Translations under genes and position numbers: made by a program | IMG/VR virus record: IMGVR_UViG_3300006028_000003 | Location: 12,032 to 76,031 of that record | Source: a virus | DNA: 64,000 nt | Reading direction: 5' to 3' (one strand) | Shown here: one piece after another, positions 37,386 to 61,449 of the stretch | Numbering within the stretch: position 1 is the stretch's first letter | Layout of the letters: each line of letters opens with the position of its first letter | The notes under the pieces: model-generated | The model's input: only the letters and a program-made list of their open reading frames with translations | Told to the model about the DNA's origin: nothing | Databases searched by the model: none

Positions 37386-37403
37386 GAACTATGGGCGGTG
37401 CAC

Positions 37404-44190: not shown

Positions 44191-44784
44191 TTAGACAACG
44201 ACGACTTGGCGCATGAGCTTACCGCCCCCGGCCCCGACCGTCAGAGTCCCGTCGCCCGTAGCGGCTGCTTTGACCGTCAGTACGCGAGATCCGGCTGCGG
44301 GCCCCACTTCAACAGCCCATGCAGCTGAGACTGCGGTAGCGCCGCCTGCATAACCCTGCTCTATCGGGCCGCCGATCACCGAAACACCATCGATCTGAAT
44401 GTCGAGCTCCAACGCACCACCGGCTGAGCTTCCGGCGACGCCAGCAGCGACGTAGCCGGTGATGATGATGCTCTGCCCGGCCACGATCGTTACCGTCGCG
44501 GTGGCAACAGTTGCAAGCGATCCCGTCAGAACAACGGGGGCGCCGTTACTGGACGATCCAGTCGAGACCAGGTTTGCGGGGCCGGTGGGACCAGTAGCGC
44601 CGGTTCCCCCAGGGCCAGTCGCTCCCGTTGCTCCGGTAGGCCCCGTCGCGCCGGAACCAGCGGGGCCCGTTGGACCAGTCGCACCAGAAGGACCCCCTGG
44701 CCCAGTCGCTCCGGCGCCACCCGGAGGGGTTCCGACGGATGTTGCGATTGTGCCGACGTAGGTGCTGTAGGGGATAGGGGGCAT
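44191..44784 (-). CDS. Short collagen-like fibre with beta head
   Basis: About 15 GAT/GPT triplets; head with DIQIDG. Confidence 0.8.
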   Translation of the reverse strand: MPPIPYSTYVGTIATSVGTPPGGAGATGPGGPSGATGPTGPAGSGATGPTGATGATGPGGTGATGPTGPANLVSTGSSSNGAPVVLTGSLATVATATVTIVAGQSIIITGYVAAGVAGSSAGGALELDIQIDGVSVIGGPIEQGYAGGATAVSAAWAVEVGPAAGSRVLTVKAAATGDGTLTVGAGGGKLMRQVVVV

Positions 44785-44806
44785 GGTTTTTCCGTCGGTC
44801 CGGGTT

Positions 44807-45274
44807 TTACAGATCCGCGACTACAATCGTCGCGTCGCCGGTGAGAATTTGCGCGGTGTGACCACCGCCAATTGACGCCCTGACCCCGTAGGTATGGGAG
44901 GCGCCGGGGGCCGGAGTGTCGATGAAGGTGGCGGCCCCGAATGCTTTGACGCTCCCGGTTGCGGTTCCTGCGCTCACCTCGGAGGTGCCGCCGACTGGGG
45001 TGGTTCCATCGCGGAAGATCTGAACGGTTACCGCGTCACCGTCGGCTAGGGTTCCGGGGGCGACGCTGATCGTTCCAACGACCAACACCTTGCCGGTTCC
45101 GGAAATAAACGCACTCGAGTCCCACTCCACCGTTGCGCCGGGCCCGATGGGAGCGGCGTTGGTCTGGCTCAGGTTGTTACCGGAGGGGCTTCCCGACGCG
45201 CCGCGCCCGAGGGCACCGAGGATCGAGGTGTAGGCCTTGTTAGCCAGAGCGGTAACGGATTTCATGGGGATCAT
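44807..45274 (-). CDS. Fibre-head-like virion protein
   Basis: Beta-rich, QIFRDG...F.DTP..G.SHTY. Confidence 0.6.
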   Translation of the reverse strand: MIPMKSVTALANKAYTSILGALGRGASGSPSGNNLSQTNAAPIGPGATVEWDSSAFISGTGKVLVVGTISVAPGTLADGDAVTVQIFRDGTTPVGGTSEVSAGTATGSVKAFGAATFIDTPAPGASHTYGVRASIGGGHTAQILTGDATIVVADL

Positions 45275-45768
45275 CCTCGGCGGCGGTTTTTCTTCCAGTA
45301 AAGGTAGCCGAAAACACCGGCGGTCGCGACTCCAGCTCCGATGAGAGCAAACGGAATCATGTTCGACGGTGGGGGGTTCGTAGGAACAGTCGGAGTTGGG
45401 GTCGGCGGTGTCGGGGTTGGTGCCGGAGGCACAACGGGGGGGACAACGGGGGGAGCCGGGGGAATGACCGGAACAACTGGCGGAGCGACACTAGGGGTGA
45501 AGCAATCCGGGGGCGCGGTCCCCTGCCCGAGGGTGCTCATCACGAATTGCAGCGCCCCGCGGGTTAGCGGCCCATACTTCCCGTCTTCAACGAGCGGGTT
45601 GTTTGGGTTAGCCAGGTTCCATTGCACCTGGAAGTCATGGCATTCCGGAAAGGGTTGCTGGGTGCAAGGATTGCCCGAAAGCCAGCCGATCAGATCAGCG
45701 GCGGTCTGCGCGAGGGGCGTTGGCGGAAGATCCGGTTGCCCAAAAGCCAGTCGAGGCATCCAACTCAT
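45271..45768 (-). CDS. Peptidoglycan-binding domain + Pro stalk + C-terminal TM/basic tail
   Basis: FQ..WN...LVEDGKYGPLTRGAL; TM then YWKKNRRRG. Confidence 0.78.
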   Translation of the reverse strand: MSWMPRLAFGQPDLPPTPLAQTAADLIGWLSGNPCTQQPFPECHDFQVQWNLANPNNPLVEDGKYGPLTRGALQFVMSTLGQGTAPPDCFTPSVAPPVVPVIPPAPPVVPPVVPPAPTPTPPTPTPTVPTNPPPSNMIPFALIGAGVATAGVFGYLYWKKNRRRG

Positions 45769-46310
45769 CGATGATGCTTCTTCCGCTTCCAGGCCCAGTA
45801 AATCAAGCCGGCTCCGAGAACCGCGGCACCGCCGATGATGACGGGGGTTGGAATCCCAGTGGCTCCGGCGGGGGTAATGGCCGTCGGAGTCGTTGGAGCC
45901 GGCGCGGGGGGCTCGTCAGGTTGCGGCGTCGTAGGCACCACGTCGCTGAAAACATTCTGGGGCGCCAACTGCGAAGGCCCGATGACGTTGTTCAACGCAA
46001 CCTGAGTGTTGGGCCCATATTGGCCGTCAACAGTAAGGCTCCCAGGCAACCCGGAGCTATTGTAGGCGCTCTGGAAAGCAGAGACTTGCGGAACCGAATC
46101 TCGCGAAGGGGCATTGGTGGCAAAGAAGGCCATCAGATCCGCCGCCGCCGATTGCGCCGCGGGGAGGTCACCAAAGCCGGATCCACCCGCAAGGCCTTGG
46201 CTATAGGTGATCCCGTTAGCAGCAACCCACCAAGTTTTTTCGACTAGCATCGGAGTTGCTCCGAGGCCGAAGGGGCCACTTCCGAGGGGAGCTTTGATCC
46301 AAGTTTTCAT
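45765..46310 (-). CDS. Peptidoglycan-binding domain + Pro/Thr stalk + C-terminal TM/basic tail
   Basis: AFQSAYN...LTVDGQYGPNTQVAL; TM then WAWKRKKHHR. Confidence 0.78.
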   Translation of the reverse strand: MKTWIKAPLGSGPFGLGATPMLVEKTWWVAANGITYSQGLAGGSGFGDLPAAQSAAADLMAFFATNAPSRDSVPQVSAFQSAYNSSGLPGSLTVDGQYGPNTQVALNNVIGPSQLAPQNVFSDVVPTTPQPDEPPAPAPTTPTAITPAGATGIPTPVIIGGAAVLGAGLIYWAWKRKKHHR

Positions 46311-47117
46311 TTACATCTCCACCACGAGGGAAACACCGACCCGCCAATATCGAGGGCGCCCGCCTTCGTCGCTGCCGAAGTTGCCGATGAAGTTCTCCTC
46401 GAGAGGAAGGCCAAGCGCTGGAGTCAACGCGGGGTAGGCTCCGGAGCTTTGCTTCACGCTGATGAAGAACGCGATGGTGTCGGGGCCTTCAACGGTGATG
46501 TCGAGGCTACGCCAGGCGCCGTGCGTTCGCTGTTGGGTCCGGAGGTCGAAGAAGGTGGAGTGGTTCCCTTGGCTAAGGGGGGTTCCCCAGGGGCGGCCCA
46601 ACATCGGCGGTTGGTAGGAAGTGAGCTGGGTGTAGATCCGGTTCCCTGCGGCGATAGTGTATTTGTTGTAGAGGAGGCAAGGGCCATCAGCCCAAAGCCG
46701 CTTGAAGCTATTCAAGTCAAGCGGGGTCGGATCGGTCAGGGGATACCCGGAGTTATTCGGGGGCCCGAGTCGATGCATGTGCCAAGAAATGTTGCCGTCG
46801 GGCAACCGGAAGTTGGGGGAGATGATCTCCTGCTCGACGAATCGAGTCGGAGAAGTTGCAACCCCAAGGGAGGCAAATTGCCGGTAGCCAACGATGCGAG
46901 CAACCCCGCCTTCGCCAAGGCTGAAGGAGGCCCCCAAGAAAAGATACCGGGAGGCCTTATCCGAGGTCGCAAGGGTTGGGACCCTCAAGCCGAAGGAGGA
47001 GGCCCCGCCGAAGGGGTCTCCGCCTTGAGCTTGCAAGAACTCATCGAGGCCGGTGGTCTCAAACTCCGAGACGCGCCGGCTCCCTCTGAGTAGTTCGGGG
47101 TTGAGGGGCTGCACCAT
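46311..47117 (-). CDS. Putative minor capsid/vertex protein (jelly-roll-like)
   Basis: Soluble, beta-rich, directly downstream of two capsid candidates; ends V.GPDTIAFFISV.Q...WRVGVSLVVE. Confidence 0.45.
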   Translation of the reverse strand: MVQPLNPELLRGSRRVSEFETTGLDEFLQAQGGDPFGGASSFGLRVPTLATSDKASRYLFLGASFSLGEGGVARIVGYRQFASLGVATSPTRFVEQEIISPNFRLPDGNISWHMHRLGPPNNSGYPLTDPTPLDLNSFKRLWADGPCLLYNKYTIAAGNRIYTQLTSYQPPMLGRPWGTPLSQGNHSTFFDLRTQQRTHGAWRSLDITVEGPDTIAFFISVKQSSGAYPALTPALGLPLEENFIGNFGSDEGGRPRYWRVGVSLVVEM

Positions 47118-47124
47118 CGCGGTC

Positions 47125-47877
47125 CTACAATGAGAGGACCATCTTGATGTAGGAGTCGCTCATCTCGATCCCGAAGTCATTCTGCAACGAGTCGATGGCC
47201 TCGCGGGTCGTCATTGTAACAAAAGATTGGGTTACTGGCACCCAGCCGCGGTAGGTGCAGACGACTTCGATCGGCGCGTAGGGGAGAAGGATCTTCGCGT
47301 TGAAGTCCATCCACAACTGCTGCTGATAGGTGAGCACCCAACCGCCAGGCCAATGGGAGCTCCCGGTGACCATATCGGCCAACGTACTCAACGGGGTGTA
47401 TTTGTTGGCGACGTCGTAGCGAGGCGCGCCTTGGATGCTCAGCTTTGCTTCGATCCCCGACTGGAAGCCGAAGAAGAAGTCGCTGAACGCTTGGAATTGG
47501 TTTTGGTTCGCGGTCGAAGATTCGTTCTGAACCCTCACCACCAACGCATCGATGAGGGTGTCCTGAACGATCTTGACGTCGGAGCCGACCCCGGTAATGA
47601 CCGAAGTTGCGGTATCGGGGAAGATTGCCCGGACGTTGATGATGTAAGGCGCGAGGGGAACTCCCTTCGCCTTGGCGAGAGCGAGCCTCGGAGAACCCGC
47701 CGCCAGCATCGCGTAGACGCCGGCAGCGAGGGGTCCGAGGACATTGTCGGTGCAGTCGCAGCTCCCCATACCGAAGGCTTTCACCTTCGGCTTTGGGGGG
47801 GCTCCGAGACCCGCTGTTTTCGAGAGCAGCTTTTCGAGTTGCTCGTTGGAGATCCAGGCTCCTGCTTGCTGAGTCAT
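47125..47877 (-). CDS. Putative single jelly-roll capsid protein (small MCP-like)
   Basis: AGGAGG RBS; alternating strands YIINVRAIF..KIVQDTLIDAL..AKLSIQG..TPL..WVL..QLWMDF..EVVCTYRG. Confidence 0.5.
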   Translation of the reverse strand: MTQQAGAWISNEQLEKLLSKTAGLGAPPKPKVKAFGMGSCDCTDNVLGPLAAGVYAMLAAGSPRLALAKAKGVPLAPYIINVRAIFPDTATSVITGVGSDVKIVQDTLIDALVVRVQNESSTANQNQFQAFSDFFFGFQSGIEAKLSIQGAPRYDVANKYTPLSTLADMVTGSSHWPGGWVLTYQQQLWMDFNAKILLPYAPIEVVCTYRGWVPVTQSFVTMTTREAIDSLQNDFGIEMSDSYIKMVLSL

Positions 47878-47910
47878 CGAGGGTTACCTCCTTTCAGGGG
47901 GTAGCCCCGA

Positions 47911-49266
47911 TCACTGCGCTGCGAACCGCATCCCGACGCACTCGAACACGGCCGCGCGGATGTCGGCGCTCGCACTGAGCTGGTTGTACCAATCCTGGGA
48001 GACTTCGAAGCCGCGGATCGGGAGGGTCAACTTGAGGTCGCCAGACTGGTAGACAACGCGCTCGGCGTCGACTTGCTGCGCGACGTCGGTTCCGTCGAGG
48101 GTGCGCTCCAACATGACGGGAGAAGCGCCGCCTGCGGTCGGCTCCGCGATCCAGTTGCTGTCCGACGTGAAGATCGGGGGGATGCTCCCGCCGAAGCCCT
48201 GCGTGATGCTGAGGAACTGGCGCATCTGGTCGCCTTCCACGGAGTCACACTCCTGAAGGAAGATCCCGATCGGAACGCCGCGGGGGATCACGTAGGGGAC
48301 GCAGAGCTTGCGCATCTCCTTGTTGCCGTTGAGCATCGACCGGAGATCCATGCCGCCGTAGGTGGCGCCGACGATCTCGAAGTCACGCGTCGGGGTGAAC
48401 CGCCCGACGTTGACACCGCCGGTGGCCGCAGAGCCGAGCCGAAGGAAGTCGACGCGGCTGAAGTTGAGGGCCGTGCCGAGCTCATCGTAGCGCTGGTTCA
48501 GGTTGCGCTCGAAGGTGACGGTATCGACCTCAGAGCTGGAAGCAGAGCCTTCCTGCGCCGACGGAGGCATGTACGCCGTGTGACGGAGCTGATCGTCGCA
48601 GATGTTGGTGTGCTGACCGATCTTCCACCGGTAGTTATAGGCGCGGCTCATGTGCCAGCAGACGTAGTTCGCCCACCACCCGTGACGCCACACCGCGGGG
48701 AGAGCGACGCCCGTGGGGCTTGCGCCTGCGAAAGCGGCGCCGAGAGCTCCGTTGAAGCGGTCGTTCTGGGTGAAGACGTCAGGAGAAGGCGGCTTCGCAA
48801 CAGCGGCCGTCGGATGCGTAAACGCATTGCCCCGGGCGGTGAAGCAGAGGGGTTCCGGCTCCATGATGAAGCCGACATAGCAGGCGACGAAGTTCGTCTG
48901 GGTCTGCCCGGTCTGCGCCATCGTGGTTTCCACGAAGTCGATTCCGAAGGGCGACTTGCCGGCGCCGAAGAGGTCGATCTCCGCGCCGAAGTTACTCCGG
49001 ACGCTTTCGTCGACCTGAGGGCCGGTCATCGTCCATCGGACTTCCTCGATCACGTCCATGTTCCAGTAGGGGGTGTTGCTTGACTCCTGCATCAGGTCGA
49101 TGATGCTTCCGAACCCAGACTTGAGGGTCGCGGCGTCCTTGACCTTACTGAGGTCGAGCGCTCGGCCCTGACCAACCTGGTATCGATCGCTGGGCCGCTC
49201 CCTCTTGCGGATTTCCGCCGCCCGAGGGGCGACATTGCGAGACTGAACGAGACCTCTGTAATCCAT
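47911..49266 (-). CDS. Putative major capsid protein (vertical jelly-roll-like)
   Basis: GGAG RBS, strongly biased codons; IDLFG...ETTMAQTGQ...FVA..VGF resembles the LF..TNM..GQ..F.V pattern of jelly-roll MCPs; PYVIP.G.PI.I.L; terminal L.L.IRGFE. Confidence 0.58.
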   Translation of the reverse strand: MDYRGLVQSRNVAPRAAEIRKRERPSDRYQVGQGRALDLSKVKDAATLKSGFGSIIDLMQESSNTPYWNMDVIEEVRWTMTGPQVDESVRSNFGAEIDLFGAGKSPFGIDFVETTMAQTGQTQTNFVACYVGFIMEPEPLCFTARGNAFTHPTAAVAKPPSPDVFTQNDRFNGALGAAFAGASPTGVALPAVWRHGWWANYVCWHMSRAYNYRWKIGQHTNICDDQLRHTAYMPPSAQEGSASSSEVDTVTFERNLNQRYDELGTALNFSRVDFLRLGSAATGGVNVGRFTPTRDFEIVGATYGGMDLRSMLNGNKEMRKLCVPYVIPRGVPIGIFLQECDSVEGDQMRQFLSITQGFGGSIPPIFTSDSNWIAEPTAGGASPVMLERTLDGTDVAQQVDAERVVYQSGDLKLTLPIRGFEVSQDWYNQLSASADIRAAVFECVGMRFAAQ

Positions 49267-49365
49267 GATGCGATTCTCCGTGGTTAGGTGGCCCTCTTAG
49301 GCGCCCACCAGTTTTGAACCGCACTCAGCTTTCGTTTCCCCGGAAGCTGGAATCTTGCTCAAGAT

Positions 49366-50928
49366 CTATTCGTCGTTGAAGCCCCAGTTGAAGCGGTTTC
49401 GGCCGCCATTCTTGGGGACTCCGGTAAGGTTCTGCATGTTGAGGCTCGGCGGAGGAGCCGCGGGGGGTGGCGGGGGAGGAGGCGGCGGGGCCGTCATCTG
49501 GGGGGTCGGCGCCTGGGTTTGGGCGTTTTGGGAGGTTTCCCGGGGCATGCTCGGGTAACCCAGGTTTTTTTGCTCGCAGGGAGCGCAATCACCAAGGGGT
49601 TTCCCAAGCTGGGGCCTTCCGAGGCCTGCTGAGGGGAGGGAAGCCAAATCGGCGGCTTGCTGGTTTCCGTTGTTCGCCTTGAGAACCGCGGCCCTCATCT
49701 CACCGTCGTAGAGGCGCTGGCCGGTTCCCATGCCCTTGGTGAGCGTCGCGATTGCGTCGATGGCGCCCTTACCAACGACTCGAACTCCCCAGCCGAACGC
49801 TGCGAATTGCATCGAAGCGCGGACCATCGGGGCCTTGACGAAACTCGCGGTGACGAACATCACCGCGGGAACGCCGATGCCGGCGGCCCATCGGCCAAGA
49901 TCCATCGGAGCGCAAATCGCGGTCGGATTGAAGAGCCCGGAATAACTCCCGGAAGTCGGAGGGTTGTCGGCGTAGAGCTCGTTTCCGTTCGCATCCTTGG
50001 TGCCCTTATCGGTCAGGGCGTGGGTCGCGATGAAGCGGTCGAGAGCATCGCCGCCGAGGAAGCCGAGGGTGCCGAAGATCGAGGCGACGAAGAGCTCACC
50101 GCCAGTCAAGCCGTATTGGCTTGGGTTGCGCCTCGATCGGCCACGGCGTCGACCACGGCGGCGCTCGGCCGCGTAGTCTTCACGTCGACTCGACCGGCTT
50201 CGGAAGCCCTGCGAAGCCATACGGCCTCGACGGGCCGCGTGGGCCTTTTTGATGTTGCGGCGGGCGGCGGCGATTTGCTTTCGGCTCGCCTTGCGCTTTC
50301 CACCACCGCTCTTGCGGCGACCGCGCGACTTCCGCTTCGGGGCTTTGCCCGCCCGGCGTCGACGTGCCCAACCCTTTTTGGCTGCCTTCGCGTGCCGACG
50401 AGGGGCTCCACGCCATTCGCTTGCGGAGCTCTTTCGGCTCTTCCGACGCCGTTTCGCGGCCTTGCGCTTCGCCTTGCTGCGCTTGCGCTTCGGGGTCGGG
50501 TTGTGCTTTGCGCGCCGCTTACCCTTCGACCGGCGCTTTTTGCGCGGGGTCTCGGAGGCCCGATGTTTCGATCGACGCGCGGCCTTTGCGGCGCGGATCA
50601 TCTTCCGCGTAGCGCGCTGTTGCGCAGCGGTGCGAGCCTTCTTGCGACCCTTTTTCTTGGCCATCGGTGCTTTCCTCGAAGATTTTGCGCCTGACCTGCC
50701 TTTCCCCGTTGAAGTTGTGCTCTCTCGAAGTGAAGCGCGGCGGCGATGGTATGTCAAGCCCCTCCCCTTCTTGTGCGCCTTCTTCTTAGTCTTACGGCGG
50801 TAGCCAAAATCTAGCCGCCGGCCTTTTTTGCTCTCCTTGCTACCGGTGATCCGGCCCTTGGCTGTCGCGGCAAATTCGGGCCCGGATTCACGGTTGGAGT
50901 CCAGGCGAGCGAGGTAATCTATCGGCAT
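49366..50928 (-). CDS. Protamine/histone-like Arg/Lys-rich protein with C-terminal membrane domain
   Basis: About 240 aa of K/R tracts ending RRNP, then hydrophobic helices and a Pro-rich tail; RBS at 50928 and at internal ATG 50664. Confidence 0.8.
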   Translation of the reverse strand: MPIDYLARLDSNRESGPEFAATAKGRITGSKESKKGRRLDFGYRRKTKKKAHKKGRGLTYHRRRASLRESTTSTGKGRSGAKSSRKAPMAKKKGRKKARTAAQQRATRKMIRAAKAARRSKHRASETPRKKRRSKGKRRAKHNPTPKRKRSKAKRKAAKRRRKSRKSSASEWRGAPRRHAKAAKKGWARRRRAGKAPKRKSRGRRKSGGGKRKASRKQIAAARRNIKKAHAARRGRMASQGFRSRSSRREDYAAERRRGRRRGRSRRNPSQYGLTGGELFVASIFGTLGFLGGDALDRFIATHALTDKGTKDANGNELYADNPPTSGSYSGLFNPTAICAPMDLGRWAAGIGVPAVMFVTASFVKAPMVRASMQFAAFGWGVRVVGKGAIDAIATLTKGMGTGQRLYDGEMRAAVLKANNGNQQAADLASLPSAGLGRPQLGKPLGDCAPCEQKNLGYPSMPRETSQNAQTQAPTPQMTAPPPPPPPPPAAPPPSLNMQNLTGVPKNGGRNRFNWGFNDE

Positions 50929-50937
50929 CGAAGCCTC

Positions 50938-51996
50938 CTAGGGGCGCACAAAACCACGGTCGTCCAGTTGAGCACCGCGGGGGAGCTCCAACCGACAAAA
51001 CTTTCCGCGTTTGTAGAGGCGGACCTTCTTGTGGCCCCCCAAGAGTGACATCAAGCCCTTGTTGAATTCATGGCGAAAATAGCCCGCGCGTCGGCCACTT
51101 CGGGTGTAGAAGATGTCCGCCACCTCCCCCAAGTAAGACCAATCCCTCAACGCCTTCGGCGGGGTGTTGACCCTTCCGAGGTGACCGTCGCTCCGACCAA
51201 AGTAAGCCTTCGCATCGCCTTCGATATCAACCCGGCTTTCTCGAAGCTTAGCCGGCCCAATCAAAACACTCTTTGAAGGCCACCATCGGCCGCTCGGGTC
51301 ATGCATCATCGCTCCGGAGCAATGAATCTCGCGGCCGTCGGCAAGTTCGAAGGTGACCCCGCGCCCCTTGGCGATAAGGGCCTTGCTTCCTAGTTTTCTT
51401 CCGCCGCCGCCGGTGGGATTTTCCTTGGGCCCCTTGAAGATCATCCAACCCATCACCCCGAGGCCCACCGCGACGAGGCCCCACAAAGCGGCCGCCGCAA
51501 CGCTAGTCGGTGTCGACGTAGAAGTAGCTTTGACGGGGGTAGCGGGGGTGATCTGCGGCGCTGACGCAACCGGGCCTCTTAGATCTGCTTGAATGAGCTT
51601 CGCGAGGTCTTGGGCGGTATGAGCGGTCTGGGGTGAAGCGAGGTGCCAGTCGAGCGCTTGCAGTTGGGTGAGGACCCCATCGATTTCGGGGGGCCAAGAA
51701 GTGACCTGCGCCTTGATCGTCGCAACTTGCGGGATGATGGCTTGGTAGGCCTGGACCGCATTTTCCCACTTCTTGGCGACCATGAAGGCGTCGCCGGAGT
51801 CGATCGTGACCCCGAGGTTCTGCAAGTCGACCGCGGCGGAGCCGAAGCCTTGCGGTATTCCCCCTAGAGTCGGACACGCTCGTATGTGCATGAGGCCGTC
51901 CGACCCGAGAACGTCATGTCCTACGCCACGTGCACAACGGCCGCAGTATCGAGAGCCATCCTGCCGAAGGACTATCGCCGAGCTTTCCGAGCCCAT
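50938..51996 (-). CDS. Membrane-spanning virion protein (helical domain, TM, KENP, basic C-domain)
   Basis: TM AAAALWGLVAVGLGVMGWMIF; C-domain LGEV..I.Y.R...YFRHEF; start uncertain. Confidence 0.65.
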   Translation of the reverse strand: MGSESSAIVLRQDGSRYCGRCARGVGHDVLGSDGLMHIRACPTLGGIPQGFGSAAVDLQNLGVTIDSGDAFMVAKKWENAVQAYQAIIPQVATIKAQVTSWPPEIDGVLTQLQALDWHLASPQTAHTAQDLAKLIQADLRGPVASAPQITPATPVKATSTSTPTSVAAAALWGLVAVGLGVMGWMIFKGPKENPTGGGGRKLGSKALIAKGRGVTFELADGREIHCSGAMMHDPSGRWWPSKSVLIGPAKLRESRVDIEGDAKAYFGRSDGHLGRVNTPPKALRDWSYLGEVADIFYTRSGRRAGYFRHEFNKGLMSLLGGHKKVRLYKRGKFCRLELPRGAQLDDRGFVRP

Positions 51997-52376
51997 AGCC
52001 ACCATCCTACCCCAGTCACCGCAACAAGGCCGGCCGCGACATAAACGGGGGTTAGCGGAACCGGCTTCGATGGGATCTCCCCGCCCGGGGGCGTCGGGGT
52101 TCCGCCATCGGCATCGACCCAAGCGGAAACCGCATGAGAGTCATCAATCCAGCTCAACACCCCAGGGACCCCCCAGGGGATGCTTCCGTCGGCCGTTGCG
52201 GTCGCGGCGATCAAACTTCCACCGGGAACCACCGCGAAGGAATAAACGCTAAGGCCGTGCTTCGTCGCAAAGCTTTTGATGTCAGCCTCGGAATGCGACG
52301 TCGCTACTAGGGCCGCGTAAGCAGAGCCTTTCTTGGTGGCGATGTCTTTCCCGGTTGGGAGAGCTACCCAAGTCAT
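51972..52376 (-). CDS. Small membrane protein with C-terminal TM/basic tail
   Basis: TM then WWLWARKARR. Confidence 0.7.
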   Translation of the reverse strand: MTWVALPTGKDIATKKGSAYAALVATSHSEADIKSFATKHGLSVYSFAVVPGGSLIAATATADGSIPWGVPGVLSWIDDSHAVSAWVDADGGTPTPPGGEIPSKPVPLTPVYVAAGLVAVTGVGWWLWARKARR

Positions 52377-53671
52377 CGCCGGGGCAAGAGCCGATCTAGC
52401 GTGTAGAGCCCCGCGATCGTGCCGACGATCCCGAGGATCAACCCAACCCCCCCGATTTCGATCGTGCTTGGATTGGTCAACTTCTGACCGAGCGTTTGGT
52501 AGGCCTCGAGAGCGCCGCCCGCACCCTTCGTGAAGAGCTGAAGGACCCCATGCGCCAAAATTCCAAGGCCCTCAACCTGGCCAACGACTTGCTGCTGAAG
52601 GCCAAGCCCAGGGGGATCTGGCAACGCTAACGTCGGGCAGTCTCGCTTCACCTGGGGTTGGTAAAAGTTGCCGACATCCGTCACCACCTTCTGGAAGTCG
52701 ACTAGGATGTCCCCAGCCGAAGCGACGATCTCCCAGTCTTGGAGGCCCGCGTGTTGGTTCCAAGACGACGTGATCGAGTCAGAAATATTTTGGTTTGCGT
52801 TGGCCCAGAGCTGCAACGTCTTCTGATCTGGAGGGGCGGCGAACTCGCTTGCATTTGGGGTTGGGCCGGTGCCATCCGCGGCGGCTTTCCAAGCGGCGGA
52901 ACAGCTTGCGGCGGCCCTAGCGGTGCCCATCACAAAGTCATCCCAAAGACTACGGTACGCGAGAACATCCCCGGGGGTAACGGCTCCGTGGGTCGCTTGG
53001 CCTAGCCCCCAATGCGGCGTTGTCGATCCGCGATGAATGCGGCGAACCGCGGGGGCCTTCCCCAAGGTGACCATCTCCGGTTGCGCCTCTCCGAGCGGAC
53101 CGACTGGCCCCATCGGGTCGACCCACACCTCGTCAACCGCGGGCGCCGCACTTCCGAACGGCATCTTCGTGGAGGGGTCGGCGTAGCGCCAGTCAGAGCC
53201 ATCATAAACCGCGATCAGAACATGCTCTTGGGCGGTGCCTCCGAAGTTTTGCTTCACGATTTGTGTGGGCAACCCGATCGACAAGTAAAGGCTCCCCAAA
53301 GCCACGCTGAGGTCATCGCAATCCCCGCCTTGGATGCAGAGGTTCGGCCGCAAGCAAAGGGTGGCGCCCGCGCTCTGAATCGATTCGGTTCCGTAGGGGT
53401 CGCTCGTGTAAACCGTTGCGGACCGAAGGCAATCTAGGATCGCGGCGGCTTGCTTTGCTGCGGTCGTCGACCCATCGCGGCCGTCGAGGCCCTTCGCGCG
53501 AAGACAATCAAGGGCCCACTGTTTGACTCCCGCGTCGATCTTGCCCTCCCTCATCTTCTGCGCCATCGTCTCAAGGGACATGCGAATCCCAGCCTGGCCG
53601 TTGGGATAGTTCCCGACGGTCACCGGAATACCGGCGGCGCGCATACTTTGGAGGCCAGGATCGAAGGCCAT
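52373..53671 (-). CDS. Transglutaminase-fold (Cys-His-Asp) enzyme fused to a helical domain with C-terminal TM
   Basis: GGDCDDL (Cys), QEHV (His), WRYADPS (Asp); linker with TLG and WGLG; TM then LLPRR. Confidence 0.82.
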   Translation of the reverse strand: MAFDPGLQSMRAAGIPVTVGNYPNGQAGIRMSLETMAQKMREGKIDAGVKQWALDCLRAKGLDGRDGSTTAAKQAAAILDCLRSATVYTSDPYGTESIQSAGATLCLRPNLCIQGGDCDDLSVALGSLYLSIGLPTQIVKQNFGGTAQEHVLIAVYDGSDWRYADPSTKMPFGSAAPAVDEVWVDPMGPVGPLGEAQPEMVTLGKAPAVRRIHRGSTTPHWGLGQATHGAVTPGDVLAYRSLWDDFVMGTARAAASCSAAWKAAADGTGPTPNASEFAAPPDQKTLQLWANANQNISDSITSSWNQHAGLQDWEIVASAGDILVDFQKVVTDVGNFYQPQVKRDCPTLALPDPPGLGLQQQVVGQVEGLGILAHGVLQLFTKGAGGALEAYQTLGQKLTNPSTIEIGGVGLILGIVGTIAGLYTLDRLLPRR

Positions 53672-53680
53672 CTAGGCCCC

Positions 53681-53959
53681 TTACTTACTCGACGAGGTGG
53701 ACCCCGGAGCGAGTGAAGCGCTTGTGGGTCCGGCCGGAGGCGTTGGGCCTGTAAGAGCCGTCGAAGCGGGGGGAGTCGGCGCCATCAAACTCCCGGCGAC
53801 GAAAGCCGCCACCAAAGCCCCGACCGCTCCGAAGGCCGCGGTCACATTCCCGGGTCGCTTCGCGTTGGCGAGCTCTCCGATCACCAATCCCGCGACGGCT
53901 CCGGCGGCGCCCCCGAGGACCGTTACGAACCCTACCGTTGTGCCAGCTTTCACATCCAT
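53681..53959 (-). CDS. Small two-TM Gly-zipper protein
   Basis: AGGAG RBS; two GxxxG-rich helices. Confidence 0.7.
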   Translation of the reverse strand: MDVKAGTTVGFVTVLGGAAGAVAGLVIGELANAKRPGNVTAAFGAVGALVAAFVAGSLMAPTPPASTALTGPTPPAGPTSASLAPGSTSSSK

Positions 53960-53969
53960 GAGGCTTCTC

Positions 53970-54470
53970 CTAGCTGACTACAATCGTAACATCGAAGCCA
54001 GGGGCCCCACTCATCGTGAAGTCAGGACCGGTTCCGTGGTCTTCCATGACGCCGGGGGTCAGGTGGATGACCGCGGTTCCGGGCGCAATCGCCTTGTAGG
54101 TGCCGGAGGCGAGATGCATCCCGGTCGGCGTCGGGTTGACCTCCGCGAGAGAGGGGTTGATCGTGAGGGGCCCGCCTGAAGAGGTGGGCTTCAGGGAGAC
54201 GGCCCAAACGAGAGTGGGATCACTCACCACCGGCGTGATCTGGATCGTCTCACCGACATGCATCCCGGCTTCCACCGGGCCGGTCGGCTGAAGCAAATAA
54301 GTGGCCCTCGGAGCCGTCGGAGGAGCGAAAACCGGAGCGTTAGAAGGAGGCGCTGGAGTTGGAGCCGAAGCCGCGACGGCCGAAGGCGGGGGCCGGAAGA
54401 TGAGGTAAAGCGCCACCCCGGCTAGAGTTGCTCCGCCGACAGCAAGGGCTATTTTGGTCTCCTTCTTCAC
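53970..54470 (-). CDS. N-anchored membrane protein with Ig-like domain
   Basis: KKETK + TM + Pro stalk; YKAIAPGTAVIHL. Confidence 0.68.
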   Translation of the reverse strand: MKKETKIALAVGGATLAGVALYLIFRPPPSAVAASAPTPAPPSNAPVFAPPTAPRATYLLQPTGPVEAGMHVGETIQITPVVSDPTLVWAVSLKPTSSGGPLTINPSLAEVNPTPTGMHLASGTYKAIAPGTAVIHLTPGVMEDHGTGPDFTMSGAPGFDVTIVVS

Positions 54471-54477
54471 CGGGGGA

Positions 54478-54894
54478 TCAACCGGTTGCGAGGAAGGCCG
54501 CGTTCGTCGGGTTCACGCCGTCTTGCAGCGCAACGACCCCGTTCGGAACCGGCCCCGATTGGCCGTTGTACTTGGCGATGGCGACGTAGCTTGAGCCACT
54601 GCCTTGCAATCCCCCGGGGGTTACGCCGTTGCCGTTGAAGAAGAGGATCCCCACCGAAGTCCAGCCGGCCTGCTTCAAGGCCGTGACGAGGGAGTTGACA
54701 TCGGAAACCCCAGAGGGCACCGAGGCCGCGAAGGTGTATGTCTGCCCGTTGGTAAACTGGGTCACCGGGGTTCCGGCGGTAAGTTGACCGGCCGGAACTG
54801 AGGGGGCCTTGTACTTTTCGTAGTACCAGACGCCTCCTGCAATCGCCGCGAGAACGCCACCGCCGATGAGCCAGTTTCGCGTGGAACGCTTCAT
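54478..54894 (-). CDS. N-anchored membrane protein
   Basis: MKRSTRNWLIGGGVLAAIAGGVWYY; promoter directly upstream. Confidence 0.7.
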   Translation of the reverse strand: MKRSTRNWLIGGGVLAAIAGGVWYYEKYKAPSVPAGQLTAGTPVTQFTNGQTYTFAASVPSGVSDVNSLVTALKQAGWTSVGILFFNGNGVTPGGLQGSGSSYVAIAKYNGQSGPVPNGVVALQDGVNPTNAAFLATG

Positions 54895-54901
54895 GCGGCT
54901 T

Positions 54902-54953
54902 ATGCTACCGCCGGTGGCACGGAAGTGCAATTGTCAAGGGGATGCGGTAGTCT
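54902..54953. promoter_or_regulatory. Divergent overlapping sigma70-like promoters of the structural module
   Basis: Minus: TTGCAC-N17-TAGCAT, 7 nt to ATG. Plus: GTGCAA-N17-TAGTCT, 8 nt to ATG. Both -10s preceded by GCGG. Confidence 0.6.
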
Positions 54954-54961
54954 GAGACTCG

Positions 54962-56239
54962 ATGGTGACCCCGCCGCATTGGCCTCAGGGTAGGACCGGG
55001 GTTGGGGCCAGCCTTTCGGATTTCACTGAGCTAGCCACCTCAGACCCCCACTTCGACCAAGCATGGGGCGAAATCAACGGCCAGCTCGACATCGAGGGCG
55101 CCGGCACCACCGAGATCAACTCCGCCAAGATTGCATTGACCAACGCCTTCGAGCAGCTTTCGACCCAGAGCTTCGGCCTCAGCGGCCAGGATGCGATCAA
55201 CGCCGCGAAGCAATACGTCTTGGTGGGGCAAACGGTCCTAGGGGCGGTTCAGACAGTGGGGGGCCTCGTCGGCCAGCTCGAGAATGGGGCACCTCCTCTT
55301 GAGGTCATGCAGGCCTTTACCGGAACCCTCATCGGGTTGGCGGCGGGCGCGGGCCTCATCTCCGCGGGCGTCGGAGCGGCCATCGTCGCCGGAGTGGGGG
55401 CCATACTCGACATCCTTGGCTCCGTTGGGTTGTTTGGAAGCCCGCCACCAGGGGTTGGGGTTCCGGGCTGCAATTACTCGGTGCCTTCTCAACCGGATTT
55501 TCAATTCGGCTGCATCGTCGCGTGGGGCCCCAAGGTTGAACCGACGTCAACCCAGTGGCGGAAATTCCCCCAACCGGGAAACCCACCCGATGAGCCTTGG
55601 TTTCAACCGATCCCCAACACTTCGACGGTCTACGGCGACTGGCCTCAGATTCCAAACGGGCCTCCCCCCATTCGTCTCGGGGGCCCGGCTCCGGCTGGAA
55701 GGCCGATCGATACCGGCTTCCCGGCTTACCAGCGGGCGCTCAACGATTCGAGCAACGGAGGCTTCTTCCTCGCCTTCTTTCAAGCCTGGCAGAGCAACGC
55801 GGAATACGCGCTGAATGGGTTGAGGCCCCAGCCTGACGAGCAGGTCTTGATCCACACGTTGAGGTTGTGGAATCGAGCGCACGATGGGCCGATGGTGCCG
55901 CTTCGCGGGGGCTTCTACGCCGAATCGCTTGTGCCGCTCGCGATGAACACGTTGAGCGGGAACGACCCCCTTATGTTTGCGGGGGGCCTCGGGATCAATG
56001 TGGGGCCCATCAAGAGCCCTCCCCGGAAGGTCATCGCGCTTCACCTTCCGTCAGGAAGCATCAAGGCCTCGCCAACTTTACCGGGGGCCACTTCAACCGG
56101 CGCCAAGGTCGCCGCAGGAACCGCCGTCGTCGGCGGAGCCGCTATTCTAGGAACCGTTGTTTTTAGCTTGGTCAAGGGCCAAGCGGTTGACGCGGTGTTG
56201 GGGCACGCCTGGAAACATGTGAAGGGATGGTTTCGATGA
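54962..56239 (+). CDS. Membrane-associated virion protein (possible DNA-delivery protein)
   Basis: Leader ending GVG, helical domain, central Gly-rich TM, Pro/Trp domain, C-terminal TM. Confidence 0.62.
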   Translation: MVTPPHWPQGRTGVGASLSDFTELATSDPHFDQAWGEINGQLDIEGAGTTEINSAKIALTNAFEQLSTQSFGLSGQDAINAAKQYVLVGQTVLGAVQTVGGLVGQLENGAPPLEVMQAFTGTLIGLAAGAGLISAGVGAAIVAGVGAILDILGSVGLFGSPPPGVGVPGCNYSVPSQPDFQFGCIVAWGPKVEPTSTQWRKFPQPGNPPDEPWFQPIPNTSTVYGDWPQIPNGPPPIRLGGPAPAGRPIDTGFPAYQRALNDSSNGGFFLAFFQAWQSNAEYALNGLRPQPDEQVLIHTLRLWNRAHDGPMVPLRGGFYAESLVPLAMNTLSGNDPLMFAGGLGINVGPIKSPPRKVIALHLPSGSIKASPTLPGATSTGAKVAAGTAVVGGAAILGTVVFSLVKGQAVDAVLGHAWKHVKGWFR

Positions 56240-56607
56240 GACGTCGCAAGGCCAAGAAGAATCCCTCCGGCTCTACCTGGCTCCTTCTCGGAGTCGGCGC
56301 CGCCGCCCTCGGAGTGGGGGCCTACTTCCTCCTGAGGCCTTCGACGCCAAGCCAAACCGTAACTTCTGCGGCCCCAACTCCTGCGGCCCTTCCTCCCGGT
56401 GCAGATGTCAACGCCGCTACTTCCGCAACGCGGTTGATGCTCCTCGGAAATCAAGCCGAGGTGGCTCCCGCGGCGATGTGGCTGAAGCAATTCCAAGCCA
56501 GCGTCGGCCTTCCCGCAACGGGAGTTTTGGATCCGACAACGAGGGCCCAGTTGAACAAGGCAACGGACCTTGCGAGGCAGTTGCCGGCGACGACGATCCT
56601 CGGTTAG
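56236..56607 (+). CDS. Basic+NP leader, TM and peptidoglycan-binding domain
   Basis: MRRRKAKKNP, TM, LKQFQASVGLPATGVLDPTTRAQL. Confidence 0.8.
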   Translation: MRRRKAKKNPSGSTWLLLGVGAAALGVGAYFLLRPSTPSQTVTSAAPTPAALPPGADVNAATSATRLMLLGNQAEVAPAAMWLKQFQASVGLPATGVLDPTTRAQLNKATDLARQLPATTILG

Positions 56608-56688
56608 CCTTCGAACGCCGTTAGAGCTGCCTCTAGCGTATCGAGGGCTCCGCCTTCTCGACAGCTTTTTGGAACGCGGCTTCTGCTT

Positions 56689-58155
56689 TCACGGAGCTTC
56701 CCATCCACCTTGGCTAGGCGGGGCCCCATTGGGCATTGGCGGAACCGATCCGACTCCGCCGTCGATCGCGCCTGCCGGAATCTCCTTCACGACTCGAGCC
56801 GGCACCGCCGCGGGCCCTTGGGTGAACTTCACGATCGCATCCTTCATCGCGTTCCCCAGCCCGTTGGCGAGGTCCATCGCGCGCTCCGCGATGACGGGGT
56901 TAGACATGAAAACCCCTAGAGGACTTATTTCCTCAGACTCCTTGTCTTTTGCGTAGATGATGGGCCGACCATCGGACCATTTGGCGCCGGGAACCTCTGC
57001 GACGGTCCAAGGGATGTCGTCCTCAGGGTTGCGCGGCGCCGGCTTCTCCTCCGGAGCTTCGGGCTCCTCTTCTTCAGGAGCCTTTGGGGGAGCGCCCATA
57101 CCCGTAGCTTGGCTGATGCTTCGCTCCATCGTCTTGCCAGCGTTGTTGATGATGTTTTCCATCAAGCGGCCGACCATTCCTTCGAGCGACTTGGCGAGGC
57201 CGCCGGTGGAGACCGGCGGGGGCGGAGGCGCCGCAACCGTCGGAGGAGGCGCCGGTGGGGCTGCAACCGCCGGCTTGAAAACGCCCGCCGTTTGGAGCGC
57301 CATCAAAACCTGAGCGGTCACCTTCTGAGCGAGGGCCTCTTCATTTACAACCGGGGCCGCGACTCCGGGGGGCGCCGGGATGTTAGGTTGCCTTCCTTCC
57401 CTTGCTGCGCTGAGGGCTTCACCGAGGGCCCCACGAAGGTAGGAGAGCTCACTCATCAATCCAGCATCGGGCGGAGCCGGGGCCTGCGGGGGCATTGGAT
57501 TCCCATAGGGGTTACCGTAGCCAGGCGGGGGGGCCCACTGCTGTTGCGGTTGAAACGAAAAAGGCGCCTGGGCTGGCGGCCCCATCGGCATCGGAATCCT
57601 CGGCGCTGCAACTCCCGGCTGCCCCGCATCCGCCTGGTCTTGCGCGTTGATGATGTTCCGACAGGTCTGCACGTCGGGCATCGCTACAGATGAAGTTGTA
57701 ATGGATTGGCCGTCGGCCTTGCGCCCGAAGTAGACGTTGTAAGCCGCGGGGCCCGCTGCGCCGGTGCCGATGTGAGCGAACCGCATCGCGTAGTCGACGA
57801 GGGCTTGGCCTGGGGTCAGCTCACCGCCGCCCGCGATTGCCTCACCACCGACCCGGCCAACGAAAACCGGCCCGTTGGGCGAAGGAGGATGGGTTCTATG
57901 GAAGGAAATTGAAACGTCTCGGGGGCTAAGGTTTTGAGTCGGTAGCCATGCAACGAGGTCGTTCCAGGTTTGCTCCGCCTCGCCGGTCCCGACCCCGCCA
58001 GAGGCCCGATAGAACTTCTTCGGGTCGATGGCGCCAGCCCCGCGCTTGTTGGGCTTGGGCTTGCGTTGATGACCGGGGGGTCGCTGGGGGGCCTCGTCGG
58101 TTTCCTCTTCCTCAGAGCCGTCGTCGATATCTTCACGATCTTCGGGGGCGGTCAT
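56689..58155 (-). CDS. Pro-rich protein of unknown function
   Basis: 488 aa; acidic N-terminus, globular domain, PGVAAP repeats. Confidence 0.7.
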   Translation of the reverse strand: MTAPEDREDIDDGSEEEETDEAPQRPPGHQRKPKPNKRGAGAIDPKKFYRASGGVGTGEAEQTWNDLVAWLPTQNLSPRDVSISFHRTHPPSPNGPVFVGRVGGEAIAGGGELTPGQALVDYAMRFAHIGTGAAGPAAYNVYFGRKADGQSITTSSVAMPDVQTCRNIINAQDQADAGQPGVAAPRIPMPMGPPAQAPFSFQPQQQWAPPPGYGNPYGNPMPPQAPAPPDAGLMSELSYLRGALGEALSAAREGRQPNIPAPPGVAAPVVNEEALAQKVTAQVLMALQTAGVFKPAVAAPPAPPPTVAAPPPPPVSTGGLAKSLEGMVGRLMENIINNAGKTMERSISQATGMGAPPKAPEEEEPEAPEEKPAPRNPEDDIPWTVAEVPGAKWSDGRPIIYAKDKESEEISPLGVFMSNPVIAERAMDLANGLGNAMKDAIVKFTQGPAAVPARVVKEIPAGAIDGGVGSVPPMPNGAPPSQGGWEAP

Positions 58156-59051
58156 GCAATCACCGGGGGGCTAGCGGAAACGGGGCCGAGAGTAGCCTGC
58201 TCAAGCGCGACGTTCATCAAATTCTTGAAGGGGGCCGCCTGGTCACTTCCAGGGGGAAAGATTGCCTGGAAGTAAGGCGTCAACACCACCGTAGGGGGCT
58301 CGGTGAAGCCAGCCCCGGGGTTAGTCAGCAGGATCAGATCCAACCCCATGCTGACGGTCACCACCGCACCGCTCCCAGGAACCGCCGCTGGATCGATGAC
58401 GGCAATCGACGGGACCGAGGTATAACCGCTTCCGGGATCCGTCACGGTGACGGCGGTGACGACCCCGAGGGTAATCGTCGGGGTGAGAACCGCCTCTCGG
58501 CCCCCCTTCGTAAGGCCGCCTTGAACCAAGATGAAGGTCCCGGGGTTATAGCCTCCACCCCCGGCGGTTACCGCAGCTGAAACTACCTTCAACCTTGCTT
58601 CGGCGTGAGCCGGGGCGTTGAGGCTTCCATCGGCCAAGTTGACCGGATCTGGATCGCCTGGGGAAGTGTTGAAGTATTGCCGATCCATCTGGTCGGATCG
58701 GAAAGACAACACCTGGGGGGTTTCCTTGCTTCGGCCACCGGAGAAGGAGACGACCGGCGGAAGGATATAACCGGATCCCGGTGAGGTGACAGTGATGGCG
58801 TTCAGCGGAGAGCCAGAACCATCGCCGGGGATGAGCGAAACGGTAGCCGTTGCAGCACTCACCGGGTTCAAACCGAGGACAAGAGTCCTGACTACCGGGG
58901 AGGCGACGGGAGTTGAATCCGAGATGACTCTGACCCCGAGAAATGAAAGGGCATCTTTCGGAACAGGAACCGCCGCCATCAACGCCGCGACTTGCGCAGC
59001 AGAGGCTCCGCCGAGGAAGGCTTTGTAGGTTAGTGTTGCGGTGGAGGACAT
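58152..59051 (-). CDS. Virion-type protein with (I/V)TVT.PG.GY...P beta repeats
   Basis: 4 repeats: ITVTSPGSGY, AVTAGGGGY, VTVTDPGSGY, LTNPGAGF. Confidence 0.68.
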   Translation of the reverse strand: MSSTATLTYKAFLGGASAAQVAALMAAVPVPKDALSFLGVRVISDSTPVASPVVRTLVLGLNPVSAATATVSLIPGDGSGSPLNAITVTSPGSGYILPPVVSFSGGRSKETPQVLSFRSDQMDRQYFNTSPGDPDPVNLADGSLNAPAHAEARLKVVSAAVTAGGGGYNPGTFILVQGGLTKGGREAVLTPTITLGVVTAVTVTDPGSGYTSVPSIAVIDPAAVPGSGAVVTVSMGLDLILLTNPGAGFTEPPTVVLTPYFQAIFPPGSDQAAPFKNLMNVALEQATLGPVSASPPVIA

Positions 59052-59224
59052 CAGACTAACCTCGGTCGGTCGTAGCGCGGAAGCTGCTTACGGAAGTCGG
59101 CGTCATCGGCTTTGAAGTTGAGGGCGCGGAGGGCTTCCGTAGAAATGCCGATCGGCTTTCCATCAGGAAAACTCGGATAGACCAGCTCTTGGCGGGCCCA
59201 GTCGTAGAGGAATATCGAACTCAT
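59051..59224 (-). CDS. Small hypothetical protein (57 aa)
   Basis: MSSIFLYDWARQELVYP..., overlaps both neighbours. Confidence 0.5.
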   Translation of the reverse strand: MSSIFLYDWARQELVYPSFPDGKPIGISTEALRALNFKADDADFRKQLPRYDRPRLV

Positions 59225-59823
59225 TGTGGTGTTGCCTCCTGCGCCGGGGCGTCAGTCGGAACCGCGGGGGCCGCTGAGGCATCCGGTTCTGTTCCGGTTT
59301 CAGTTGAATCCGAGTCGTCTTCGATCCCTCGATGCTCTTCATTGCGAAGGCCTTCGAGAATCATGTTGCTGTTGACCAAAGCCCCGTCGAGTGTCCGAGC
59401 CTCGATCCATTCGATGACAGCTTCCAGCTCGAAGTCTGCGGCGTTGAGCTCTCCCGCCACCTCGTTCCACTCCTCGATGAGCATGTCGGCCATCGCGTCG
59501 AGGCTCATGGTCTCGGCGAAGTAGGTCGGAGCTTGCTTACTCAAGGTGTAGCGGGTCGGGCTCCGCATCTTCCAATCGGCCGGCGCCGGATTGGGGGGAG
59601 CCGCCGGCATAGCGTAGACCCGCGCCACACCGTCATCTTGGAAGAGCGCGATGATCCGGCTGTAGCTATCAAAGGGGACCGGCTCCCCATGCTTGAACAT
59701 CGTCGGGCCGCCGGTCGTCGTCGGGAACCAGGCGAAGGCTGAGCCTTTCGGGAGGTCGTTGAAGTCGGCGCGGACGCCTTCGATGAGGGCGTCGGAAAAT
59801 TCCTTGATCGTCGTGATGGGCAT
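59221..59823 (-). CDS. Acidic hypothetical protein
   Basis: 200 aa, D/E-rich C-half. Confidence 0.68.
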   Translation of the reverse strand: MPITTIKEFSDALIEGVRADFNDLPKGSAFAWFPTTTGGPTMFKHGEPVPFDSYSRIIALFQDDGVARVYAMPAAPPNPAPADWKMRSPTRYTLSKQAPTYFAETMSLDAMADMLIEEWNEVAGELNAADFELEAVIEWIEARTLDGALVNSNMILEGLRNEEHRGIEDDSDSTETGTEPDASAAPAVPTDAPAQEATPQ

Positions 59824-61441: not shown

Positions 61442-61449
61442 AGGGTACT

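Follow-up and report, generated by a model that had tools for sequence, protein, structure and literature searches.

A candidate core virion module of a tailless jelly-roll virus in a closed 75.9-kb genome encoding an integrase

Introduction

The stretch of DNA analyzed here (the window, 64 kb) comprises bases 12032-76031 of a single 76,031-bp contig, IMG/VR virus record IMGVR_UViG_3300006028_000003. Between positions 44191 and 59823 of the window lies a conserved block of structural genes, centered on two adjacent genes whose products, of 451 and 250 amino acids (aa), are jelly rolls according to AlphaFold2 models. We consider it rather likely that this block is the core virion module of a tailless jelly-roll virus with a complete, temperate 75.9-kb genome. 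Judged by gene content, the virus is most likely not a tailed phage: we detected no gene for a head, portal, terminase, tail, or packaging ATPase in any of four near-complete genomes. In culture, tailless bacterial viruses with a membrane range from 10 to 44 kb in genome size, and all those known to us fill their particles with DNA by an FtsK/HerA-type ATPase.

The contig begins and ends with the same 110 bases (terminal overlap), which makes the genome a closed unit of approximately 75.9 kb; IMG/VR lists the record as a virus with direct terminal repeats and a CheckV completeness of 100%. This genome (G000) was compared with three relatives from IMG/VR, namely G001 (73.4 kb), G002 (78.4 kb, with terminal repeats), and G003 (69.3 kb), each of the four being at least 92% complete. 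All open reading frames (ORFs) of at least 60 aa were scanned with Pfam, large unknown ORFs with PHROGs, and ten key proteins with NCBIfam. A tyrosine integrase gene (37398-38621, plus strand; PF00589, E 2.5e-25), kept in G001-G003, identifies the lifestyle, by sequence, as temperate. An earlier note on this DNA, which had described an integrase-encoding virus of more than 64 kb, was thus correct on both points. Genes of the block are on the minus strand unless the plus strand is given.

Results

Two jelly-roll proteins as coat candidates

The earlier note had proposed three jelly-roll-like proteins encoded by adjacent minus-strand ORFs of 451, 250, and 268 aa. All three ORFs are present: the candidate large coat protein (451 aa, 47911-49266), the candidate small coat protein (250 aa, 47125-47877), and a Gly/Pro-rich conserved protein that is always third in the triple (268 aa, 46311-47117). 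The fold assignment holds, by AlphaFold2 models, for the first two, whereas the 268-aa protein is beta-rich by sequence only.

In its model (pLDDT 77.8, 48-row alignment), the 250-aa protein consists of N-terminal helices followed by an eight-stranded single jelly roll (residues 75-214). An all-against-all structural search, whose fold scores are reliable for fold class only, aligned it with capsid proteins of EhV-201 (fold score 8.1 over 121 residues), PBCV-1 (7.9-8.0 over 117-120), Faustovirus (7.3 over 127), African swine fever virus (p72, 7.0 over 120), and Sulfolobus polyhedral virus 1 (SPV1; VP4, 6.9-7.0 over 120 of 178 residues). Weaker matches included D13, adenovirus hexon, the second barrel of PRD1 P3 (6.1), STIV, phiCjT23, FLiP, SH1, HHIV-2, and HCIV-1. 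Since non-viral jelly rolls (nucleoplasmin, PHM) and cement proteins of tailed phages (Pam1, KHP40) likewise score 6-7, the fold is secure, but homology to any single family is not.

The 451-aa model (beta-rich, pLDDT 78.5) gave weaker matches than the 250-aa model, nearly all of them to viral capsid jelly rolls: HHIV-2 (5.9), PR772 and PRD1 P3 (5.2-5.6 over 161-172 residues of one barrel), SPV1 VP4 (5.4 over 143 of 178 residues), STIV (4.7), papillomavirus L1 (4.4-4.7), and P23-77 VP17 (4.3). All alignments span from the strand at residues 72-80 to the strand at 411-422, which argues for one jelly-roll barrel with a large inserted beta domain and not for a double jelly roll; relative to the double jelly-roll viruses (PRD1/PR772, PM2, STIV), the model aligns to one barrel, not two. 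Foldseek searches against PDB and BFVD returned weak rows only, mostly jelly-roll capsid proteins, with none below E 1e-3 for the 451-aa model. A predicted complex of the two proteins gave an ipSAE of 0.00; controls were not run, and the value was not used either way.

The 451-aa (59-75% identity) and 250-aa (54-65%) proteins are the best-conserved proteins of the clade. The 451-aa family comprises 232 homologues (90% clusters), all annotated as hypothetical and, where on long contigs, mostly on contigs of 60-82 kb; an exhaustive HMMER search yielded 186 clusters at 50% identity, almost all of 400-490 aa. Family members also sit on contigs of 95-148 kb, which might represent integrated copies. 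Homologues of the 250-aa and 268-aa proteins numbered 188 and 96, respectively. In the PDB sequence library, nothing meaningful was found with profiles A1 and A6 (the 451-aa family and its divergent set), A2 (250-aa family), or A3 (268-aa family), and hhalign detected no homology among the three families. No PHROG family matched any of 25 divergent members of the 451-aa family, and tblastn of the 451-aa protein and the neighboring 520-aa protein against 50,697 GenBank phage records gave no match.

The 268-aa protein keeps its position in G001-G003 at 41-61% identity and has no match in Pfam, PHROG, NCBIfam, or PDB sequences. It looks beta-rich, having no long helix-like stretch and a strand-like end segment, and may be the vertex (penton) protein.

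A conserved G-[LF]-G motif occupies residues 51-53 of the 451-aa protein, and G-[LFM]-G motifs precede the folded parts of both the 451-aa (G51, G53) and the 250-aa (G23, G25, G36, G38) protein. Outside the block, a 309-aa protein (41263-42192, minus strand) kept in G001 and G003 carries papain-family motifs (QGATGSC..., GGHW, NSWG) and weakly matches a papain-like cysteine protease in PDB (3ois, E 0.0014), with no Pfam match. Protease-like protein and motifs could together make up a system for maturation cleavage.

Search for tailed-phage and packaging genes

Six-frame searches read through stops covered all four genomes for the profiles Terminase_6N, TerL_ATPase, Phage_portal, Phage_capsid, and FtsK_SpoIIIE, and this genome for Pox_A32; controls were positive in known genomes. 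Neither terminase nor portal (PF04860, PF03237, PF03354) was matched in the four genomes. The HK97 capsid profile (PF05065) had no six-frame match in G000-G003, and no scanned ORF matched a capsid family of Pfam or PHROG. Tail tube, sheath, and tape measure were likewise missing from the Pfam, PHROG, and NCBIfam scans of ORFs. The statement that no HK97 capsid, portal, terminase, or tape measure is recognizable thus stands across the Pfam, PHROG, and six-frame scans. As to FtsK/HerA/A32-type ATPases for packaging, PF01580 gave no match in the four genomes and PF04665 none in this genome, and the P23-77 ORF13 ATPase found nothing at E below 0.2 in the four genomes. The earlier note had looked to the rest of the contig for either an FtsK/HerA-type ATPase or a terminase and portal; neither was found. 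The 12 kb beyond the window hold replication genes only, encoding an SF1 helicase, an 876-aa uracil-DNA-glycosylase (UDG)-PolA protein, a Sak4-like AAA_24 ATPase, and a beta-helix protein, with nothing there resembling a head, tail, or packaging enzyme. The claim that no ORF exceeds about 590 aa is valid within the window, while the UDG-PolA gene outside it is longer.

All ORFs of at least 380 aa are accounted for, and none appears terminase- or portal-like by sequence inspection. They encode enzymes (helicases, polymerase, VapE, nuclease, an esterase-like protein, a glycosyltransferase-methyltransferase fusion, integrase, and a RadC fusion) or else spikes, fibers, a lectin-like lipoprotein, the jelly-roll protein, the basic protein, transmembrane (TM) proteins, and a Pro-rich protein. 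Here and in the relatives, P-loop proteins are confined to helicases, VapE, the Sak4-like protein, and one kinase-like ORF, and no conserved P-loop ORF of at least 200 aa is left without assignment.

These results bear on two other readings. The virus could be a divergent member of Caudoviricetes, with an HK97 capsid, portal, and terminase that escape the profiles and with the jelly rolls serving as decoration, cement, or receptor-binding proteins. We regard this as quite improbable: in the complete genome no unassigned ORF has the size or character of a terminase or portal, none of the four genomes has a hallmark match, no ORF has the length that a tape measure would need, conservation is highest in the jelly rolls rather than in a terminase, and half of the module consists of membrane proteins. 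Alternatively, this could be a classical jelly-roll membrane virus of the Varidnaviria type that does possess a motor, either an over-divergent ATPase or a recruited P-loop protein such as the Sak4-like AAA_24 protein (L001:8084-9253). To our knowledge, all bacterial dsDNA jelly-roll-capsid viruses encode an FtsK/HerA-type ATPase; in P23-77 the ORF13 ATPase gene adjoins the coat genes, and all four genomes share the RecA-like AAA_24 ATPase as a core gene, its Walker A being canonical in the relatives. However, the AAA_24 protein matches Sak4-like annealing proteins (PHROG 124) and sits in the replication module, nothing matches PF01580, PF04665, or the P23-77 ATPase, and the P-loop ORFs of sufficient size are all assigned, so that a hidden motor seems unlikely, if less so than a hidden tailed phage.

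A hyper-basic protein beside the candidate coat genes

The very basic protein reported earlier is real: directly upstream of the 451-aa gene, a protamine-like protein of 520 aa (49366-50928) has a net charge of +101. After approximately 290 K/R-rich residues come a conserved hydrophobic domain and a tail rich in Cys and Pro. A protein of this architecture immediately precedes the 451-aa homologue, on its upstream side, in G001 (500 aa, +93), G002 (516 aa, +113), and G003 (519 aa, +69), and in all four genomes the first 230-290 residues are almost pure K/R tracts. The protein is a candidate membrane-tethered, DNA-condensing core protein.

Membrane proteins and layout of the structural block

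The conserved block extends upstream to at least 59823, beyond the end previously set at 59051, and its order is fixed in all four genomes: a 200-aa acidic protein, a 299-aa repeat protein, a 488-aa Pro-rich protein, a 425-aa TM protein, small TM proteins, and the transglutaminase-like protein, followed by a small basic protein, the large basic protein, the 451-, 250-, and 268-aa proteins, tail-anchored proteins, and fibers. TM segments are predicted in ten block proteins (165, 181, 520, 394, 432, 92, 166, 150, 425, and 126 aa). About ten small TM proteins with basic tails had been noted earlier; the number agrees, but several are not small, and basic C-terminal tails (KKNRRRG, KRKKHHR, LLPRR) occur on three or four. 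In every one of the four genomes, about half of the block ORFs (10-11 of 21-24) carry a TM segment, and the types that recur in the three relatives are N-anchored small proteins, proteins of about 90 aa with two TM segments, a transglutaminase-like protein with a C-terminal anchor and LPxRR, and basic-ended tail-anchored proteins. The virion probably contains a lipid membrane, the sole indication being this TM share of the module ORFs.

The many membrane proteins, the nucleoprotein-type basic protein, and the failure to find a packaging motor would also suit a pleomorphic or enveloped vesicle-type virion without an icosahedral shell, with the jelly rolls acting at the surface or as matrix and the basic protein forming a nucleoid. 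Both jelly-roll proteins are nevertheless free of TM segments, their best structural matches are icosahedral capsid proteins, and known pleomorphic prokaryotic viruses are much smaller; of the readings considered, this is the one we find hardest to credit.

The 432-aa protein (52373-53671) is by its sequence transglutaminase-like, of the papain-fold type with Cys/His/Asp residues; it has a C-terminal TM anchor and an LLPRR tail, and is kept with its C-terminal TM in G001-G003. As to the transglutaminase fold proposed earlier, the PF01841 match is weak (E 4.7e-4, 20.8 bits, under the cut-off of 23), while the Cys/His/Asp region, with its DCD, HV, and DP motifs, aligns in BLASTP with structural protein gp34 of phage SSIP-1 (E 2e-6, 23% identity over 182 aa). 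The protein is a candidate virion-associated cell-wall or maturation enzyme. Next to the basic protein, a 394-aa ORF (50938-52122) with a TTG start has a mid-protein TM segment at residues 211-229. Only its basic C-terminal part of about 155 aa is conserved, and the counterparts in the relatives (154-217 aa) match that part alone; as read from the sequence, the start may have been assigned too far upstream, or else the N-terminal half, TM segment included, is an addition specific to this lineage. Three small membrane proteins (53681-54930), identified by hydropathy, measure 92 aa (two TM segments), 166 aa, and 150 aa (both with an N-terminal TM segment) and have homologues or positional equivalents with TM segments in the relatives.

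A 425-aa multi-TM protein and a 126-aa protein with a TM segment and a peptidoglycan-binding domain (PF01471, E 3.8e-5) are encoded on the plus strand (54962-56607). Its orientation is thus opposite to that of the remaining block genes, also in the 97%-identical relative L004, whereas the homologues in G001-G003 lie on the strand of the other structural genes. No inverted repeats were found flanking it.

Farther upstream, a core gene of the clade (56689-58155) encodes an acidic, Pro/Gln-rich, largely low-complexity protein of 488 aa. Alignment with the three relatives shows short conserved globular parts separated by Pro-rich linkers, with no family match. By its sequence the protein is not portal- or terminase-like and is a candidate scaffold or size-determining protein. 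ESM Atlas look-ups for it and for the 250-aa protein led to unnamed viral clusters only. The upstream end of the block (58152-59823), kept in G001-G003, encodes a 299-aa protein with PGSGY...PP.V repeats, a 57-aa ORF, and the 200-aa acidic protein. The repeats of the 299-aa protein match PHROG repeat domains of "virion structural protein" and "head closure" families (E 3.5e-11).

At the downstream end, two proteins of 165 and 181 aa (45271-46310) each combine a DGxYGPxT peptidoglycan-binding-like motif, a Pro-rich linker, a C-terminal TM segment, and a basic tail; at this position the relatives have tail-anchored proteins with basic C-termini. The partly conserved last pair (44191-45274) comprises a 197-aa collagen-like fiber with G-X-T repeats and a C-terminal beta domain, and a 155-aa beta-rich protein. 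Both are candidate vertex fibers. The earlier mention of fibers agrees with the first of these genes (44191-44784), whose collagen region matches PHROG tail-fiber families (E 3e-5).

Second virion cluster and other genes

A second virion cluster (6797-14787, minus strand), recognized by PHROG matches and sequence inspection, is partly conserved in the relatives. It contains Gly-rich spike paralogues of 504, 416, and 461 aa, a 495-aa GDS(L)-type protein, a 421-aa collagen-like fiber, and a 233-aa lysozyme/transglycosylase-like protein with a TM segment. Two of the spike genes (6797-8311 and 9559-10944, minus strand) encode a common N-terminus, MKPxDRGRVKRLEAL(E/Q)LL, and differ in their downstream parts; this looks like a common virion-anchoring domain joined to exchangeable receptor-binding parts. 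The motif FQIGDS in the 495-aa protein (10941-12428) belongs to the SGNH/GDSL esterase type. Amid Thr-rich collagen-like fiber genes, a methyltransferase gene and a GT4-methyltransferase fusion gene (16910-19245, plus strand) are kept in all four genomes, a setting that suggests glycosylated fibers.

Replication and lifestyle genes common to the four genomes encode the helicase, PolA, the Sak4-like protein, a PD-(D/E)XK nuclease, the two methyltransferase/glycosyltransferase proteins, an SNF2 helicase, and the integrase. Over the genome as a whole, the genes outside the block encode VapE, the PD-(D/E)XK nuclease, the SNF2 helicase, ThyX, a RadC-GNAT fusion, the GT4-methyltransferase, a phage lysozyme, and the Gly-rich spike and collagen fiber cluster. 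The 876-aa protein outside the window (L001:2589-5219, minus strand) is a fusion of a UDG-superfamily domain with a family A DNA polymerase and is kept in all relatives. In the fusion of a RadC-like JAB domain with a GNAT acetyltransferase (60047-61615, minus strand), only the RadC part (about 155 aa) is kept in the relatives, where it stands at the upstream edge of the structural block. Two HNH ORFs lack counterparts in G001-G003: one at 22438-23430 (minus strand; PHROG 374, E 5.5e-76) and another at 19563-20366 (plus strand), assigned by shared Cys motifs only. Both look like free-standing homing endonucleases inserted beside conserved small genes. The genome has no tRNA genes, and a promoter/terminator scan gave no more than chance.

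Host and distribution

The full stretch is present only in one rhizosphere metagenome, from which the record may derive, with small shares in three soil metagenomes; no RNA datasets are listed as holding it. Peptidoglycan-binding motifs (in the two tail-anchored proteins and the 126-aa protein) suggest that these proteins act at the cell wall and, together with lysozyme domains, that the host is bacterial. The host is most likely a bacterium of soil or rhizosphere. In a scan of genome contigs for the host, family members were found only on short contigs (2-17 kb), devoid of host genes, of one Polyangiaceae metagenome-assembled genome (MAG) and one Chloroflexota MAG. The Polyangiaceae MAG holds two different ones: a close 451-aa homologue on a 2.3-kb contig (L029), and a distant pair of the 451/250 type (E 4.5e-71 and 2.2e-23) on L031 (G006:C825), an all-viral contig that measures 17 kb and has 67.7% GC. 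No family member was found in 300 other genomes of the phylum of this MAG.

Discussion

SPV1 (Portogloboviridae; PDB 6OJ0) appears to be the closest functional analogue of the virus described here. Its virion combines the single jelly-roll proteins VP4 and VP10 with an inner layer of lipid and a VP1-DNA nucleoprotein core, and it has no identifiable packaging enzyme (PMC8459092). Single jelly-roll shell-protein candidates are likewise present here, known from genes and models. A conserved protein of net charge +69 to +113 adjoins the 451-aa gene and may bind the genome inside virions, and no ATPase was found. One glycosyltransferase and one methyltransferase are also encoded by SPV1. The two viruses differ in other respects: SPV1 infects an archaeal hyperthermophile and has a 20-kb genome with no polymerase, in contrast to the 76 kb found here with its own PolA, helicases, integrase, and peptidoglycan-directed domains, and the basic protein is far larger than that of SPV1 and fused to a hydrophobic domain.

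As to the relationship to PRD1, PM2, P23-77, or SH1 suggested previously, two single jelly rolls do lie side by side according to their models, but neither a packaging ATPase nor sequence homology was found to accompany them. As in the vertical single jelly-roll, two-coat-protein viruses of Helvetiavirae (Thermus phage P23-77, IN93, and haloarchaeal SH1, HHIV-2, HCIV-1), two adjacent, co-conserved proteins have single jelly-roll cores in their models, and the pairing of a small plain-barrel protein with a larger one bearing an extra domain recalls P23-77 VP16/VP17 (PMC4958249). Genomes in that group, however, measure only 16-31 kb, and upstream of their coat genes they encode a conserved packaging ATPase, which helps to define both this group and the PRD1/PM2 group and of which no trace was found in the 76 kb here; the gene order is reversed, with the large protein before the small one; and VP16/VP17 show no sequence homology to the coat families of this clade. 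Compared with Tectiviridae, Corticoviridae, and Turriviridae, no FtsK/HerA ATPase was found, and the genome is 5-7 times larger. Because the searches found neither an ATPase nor homology by sequence, kinship to P23-77, SH1, or PRD1 is not shown.

SSIP-1 is a bacterial, tailless, membrane-containing virus of 43.8 kb, large for its type, with two reported coat protein types (PMC6356626). Through its structural protein gp34, a homologue of the 432-aa transglutaminase-like protein, SSIP-1 provides the sole connection by sequence to a tailless membrane phage in culture; the connection is weak, since the domain in common is widespread. SSIP-1 differs in having a 2319-aa structural protein and a halophilic Bacteroidota host, and profiles of the 451-, 250-, and 268-aa families found nothing among its proteins.

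We propose that the 451-aa protein (a barrel with an inserted "tower") and the 250-aa protein (a plain barrel) would build an icosahedral shell, much as the large and small proteins of the P23-77, SH1, and SSIP-1 coats or VP4 of SPV1 do. The 268-aa protein might form the vertices, with collagen-like fibers and spikes binding the host. Beneath the shell, a lipid membrane would hold about ten TM proteins encoded by the virus, and the membrane proteins that bind peptidoglycan or act on the cell wall (the 432-aa transglutaminase-like protein, the transglycosylase) could serve entry. Since SPV1 has a nucleoprotein core and no packaging enzyme, we suggest that the hyper-basic N-terminal half of the 520-aa protein may condense the genome, its hydrophobic half tying the nucleoprotein to the membrane, so that the particle would assemble around the DNA instead of being filled by a motor, as in SPV1. 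This motor-less mechanism is put forward tentatively, by analogy with SPV1. The integrase would allow lysogeny, and the phage lysozyme would provide release.

As the earlier note had surmised, the lineage appears undescribed: literature searches found no published description, and no Pfam or PHROG family or GenBank phage relative was found. A bolder and still doubtful proposal is that the 70-80-kb genomes represent a widespread high-rank bacterial lineage, the counterpart of the portoglobovirus build, in which a jelly-roll shell and a membrane are combined with protamine-like condensation in place of a motor. Among bacterial viruses of comparable size, no such architecture has been described. 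If the proposal is true, the size limit would rise, with genomes about double that of SSIP-1, the largest tailless phage in culture, and the mode of DNA packaging would be new to bacterial viruses, in a clade common in soil that encodes a polymerase and an integrase of its own and, in place of a motor, a giant protamine-like protein. Virome pipelines that use terminase, portal, or HK97 markers, or that label all such viruses as tailed phages, would then misclassify a sizeable group. The proposal would also be relevant to the question of whether nucleoprotein cores within single jelly-roll capsids, for which the archaeal SPV1 is as yet the sole example, are ancient and shared by both prokaryotic domains.

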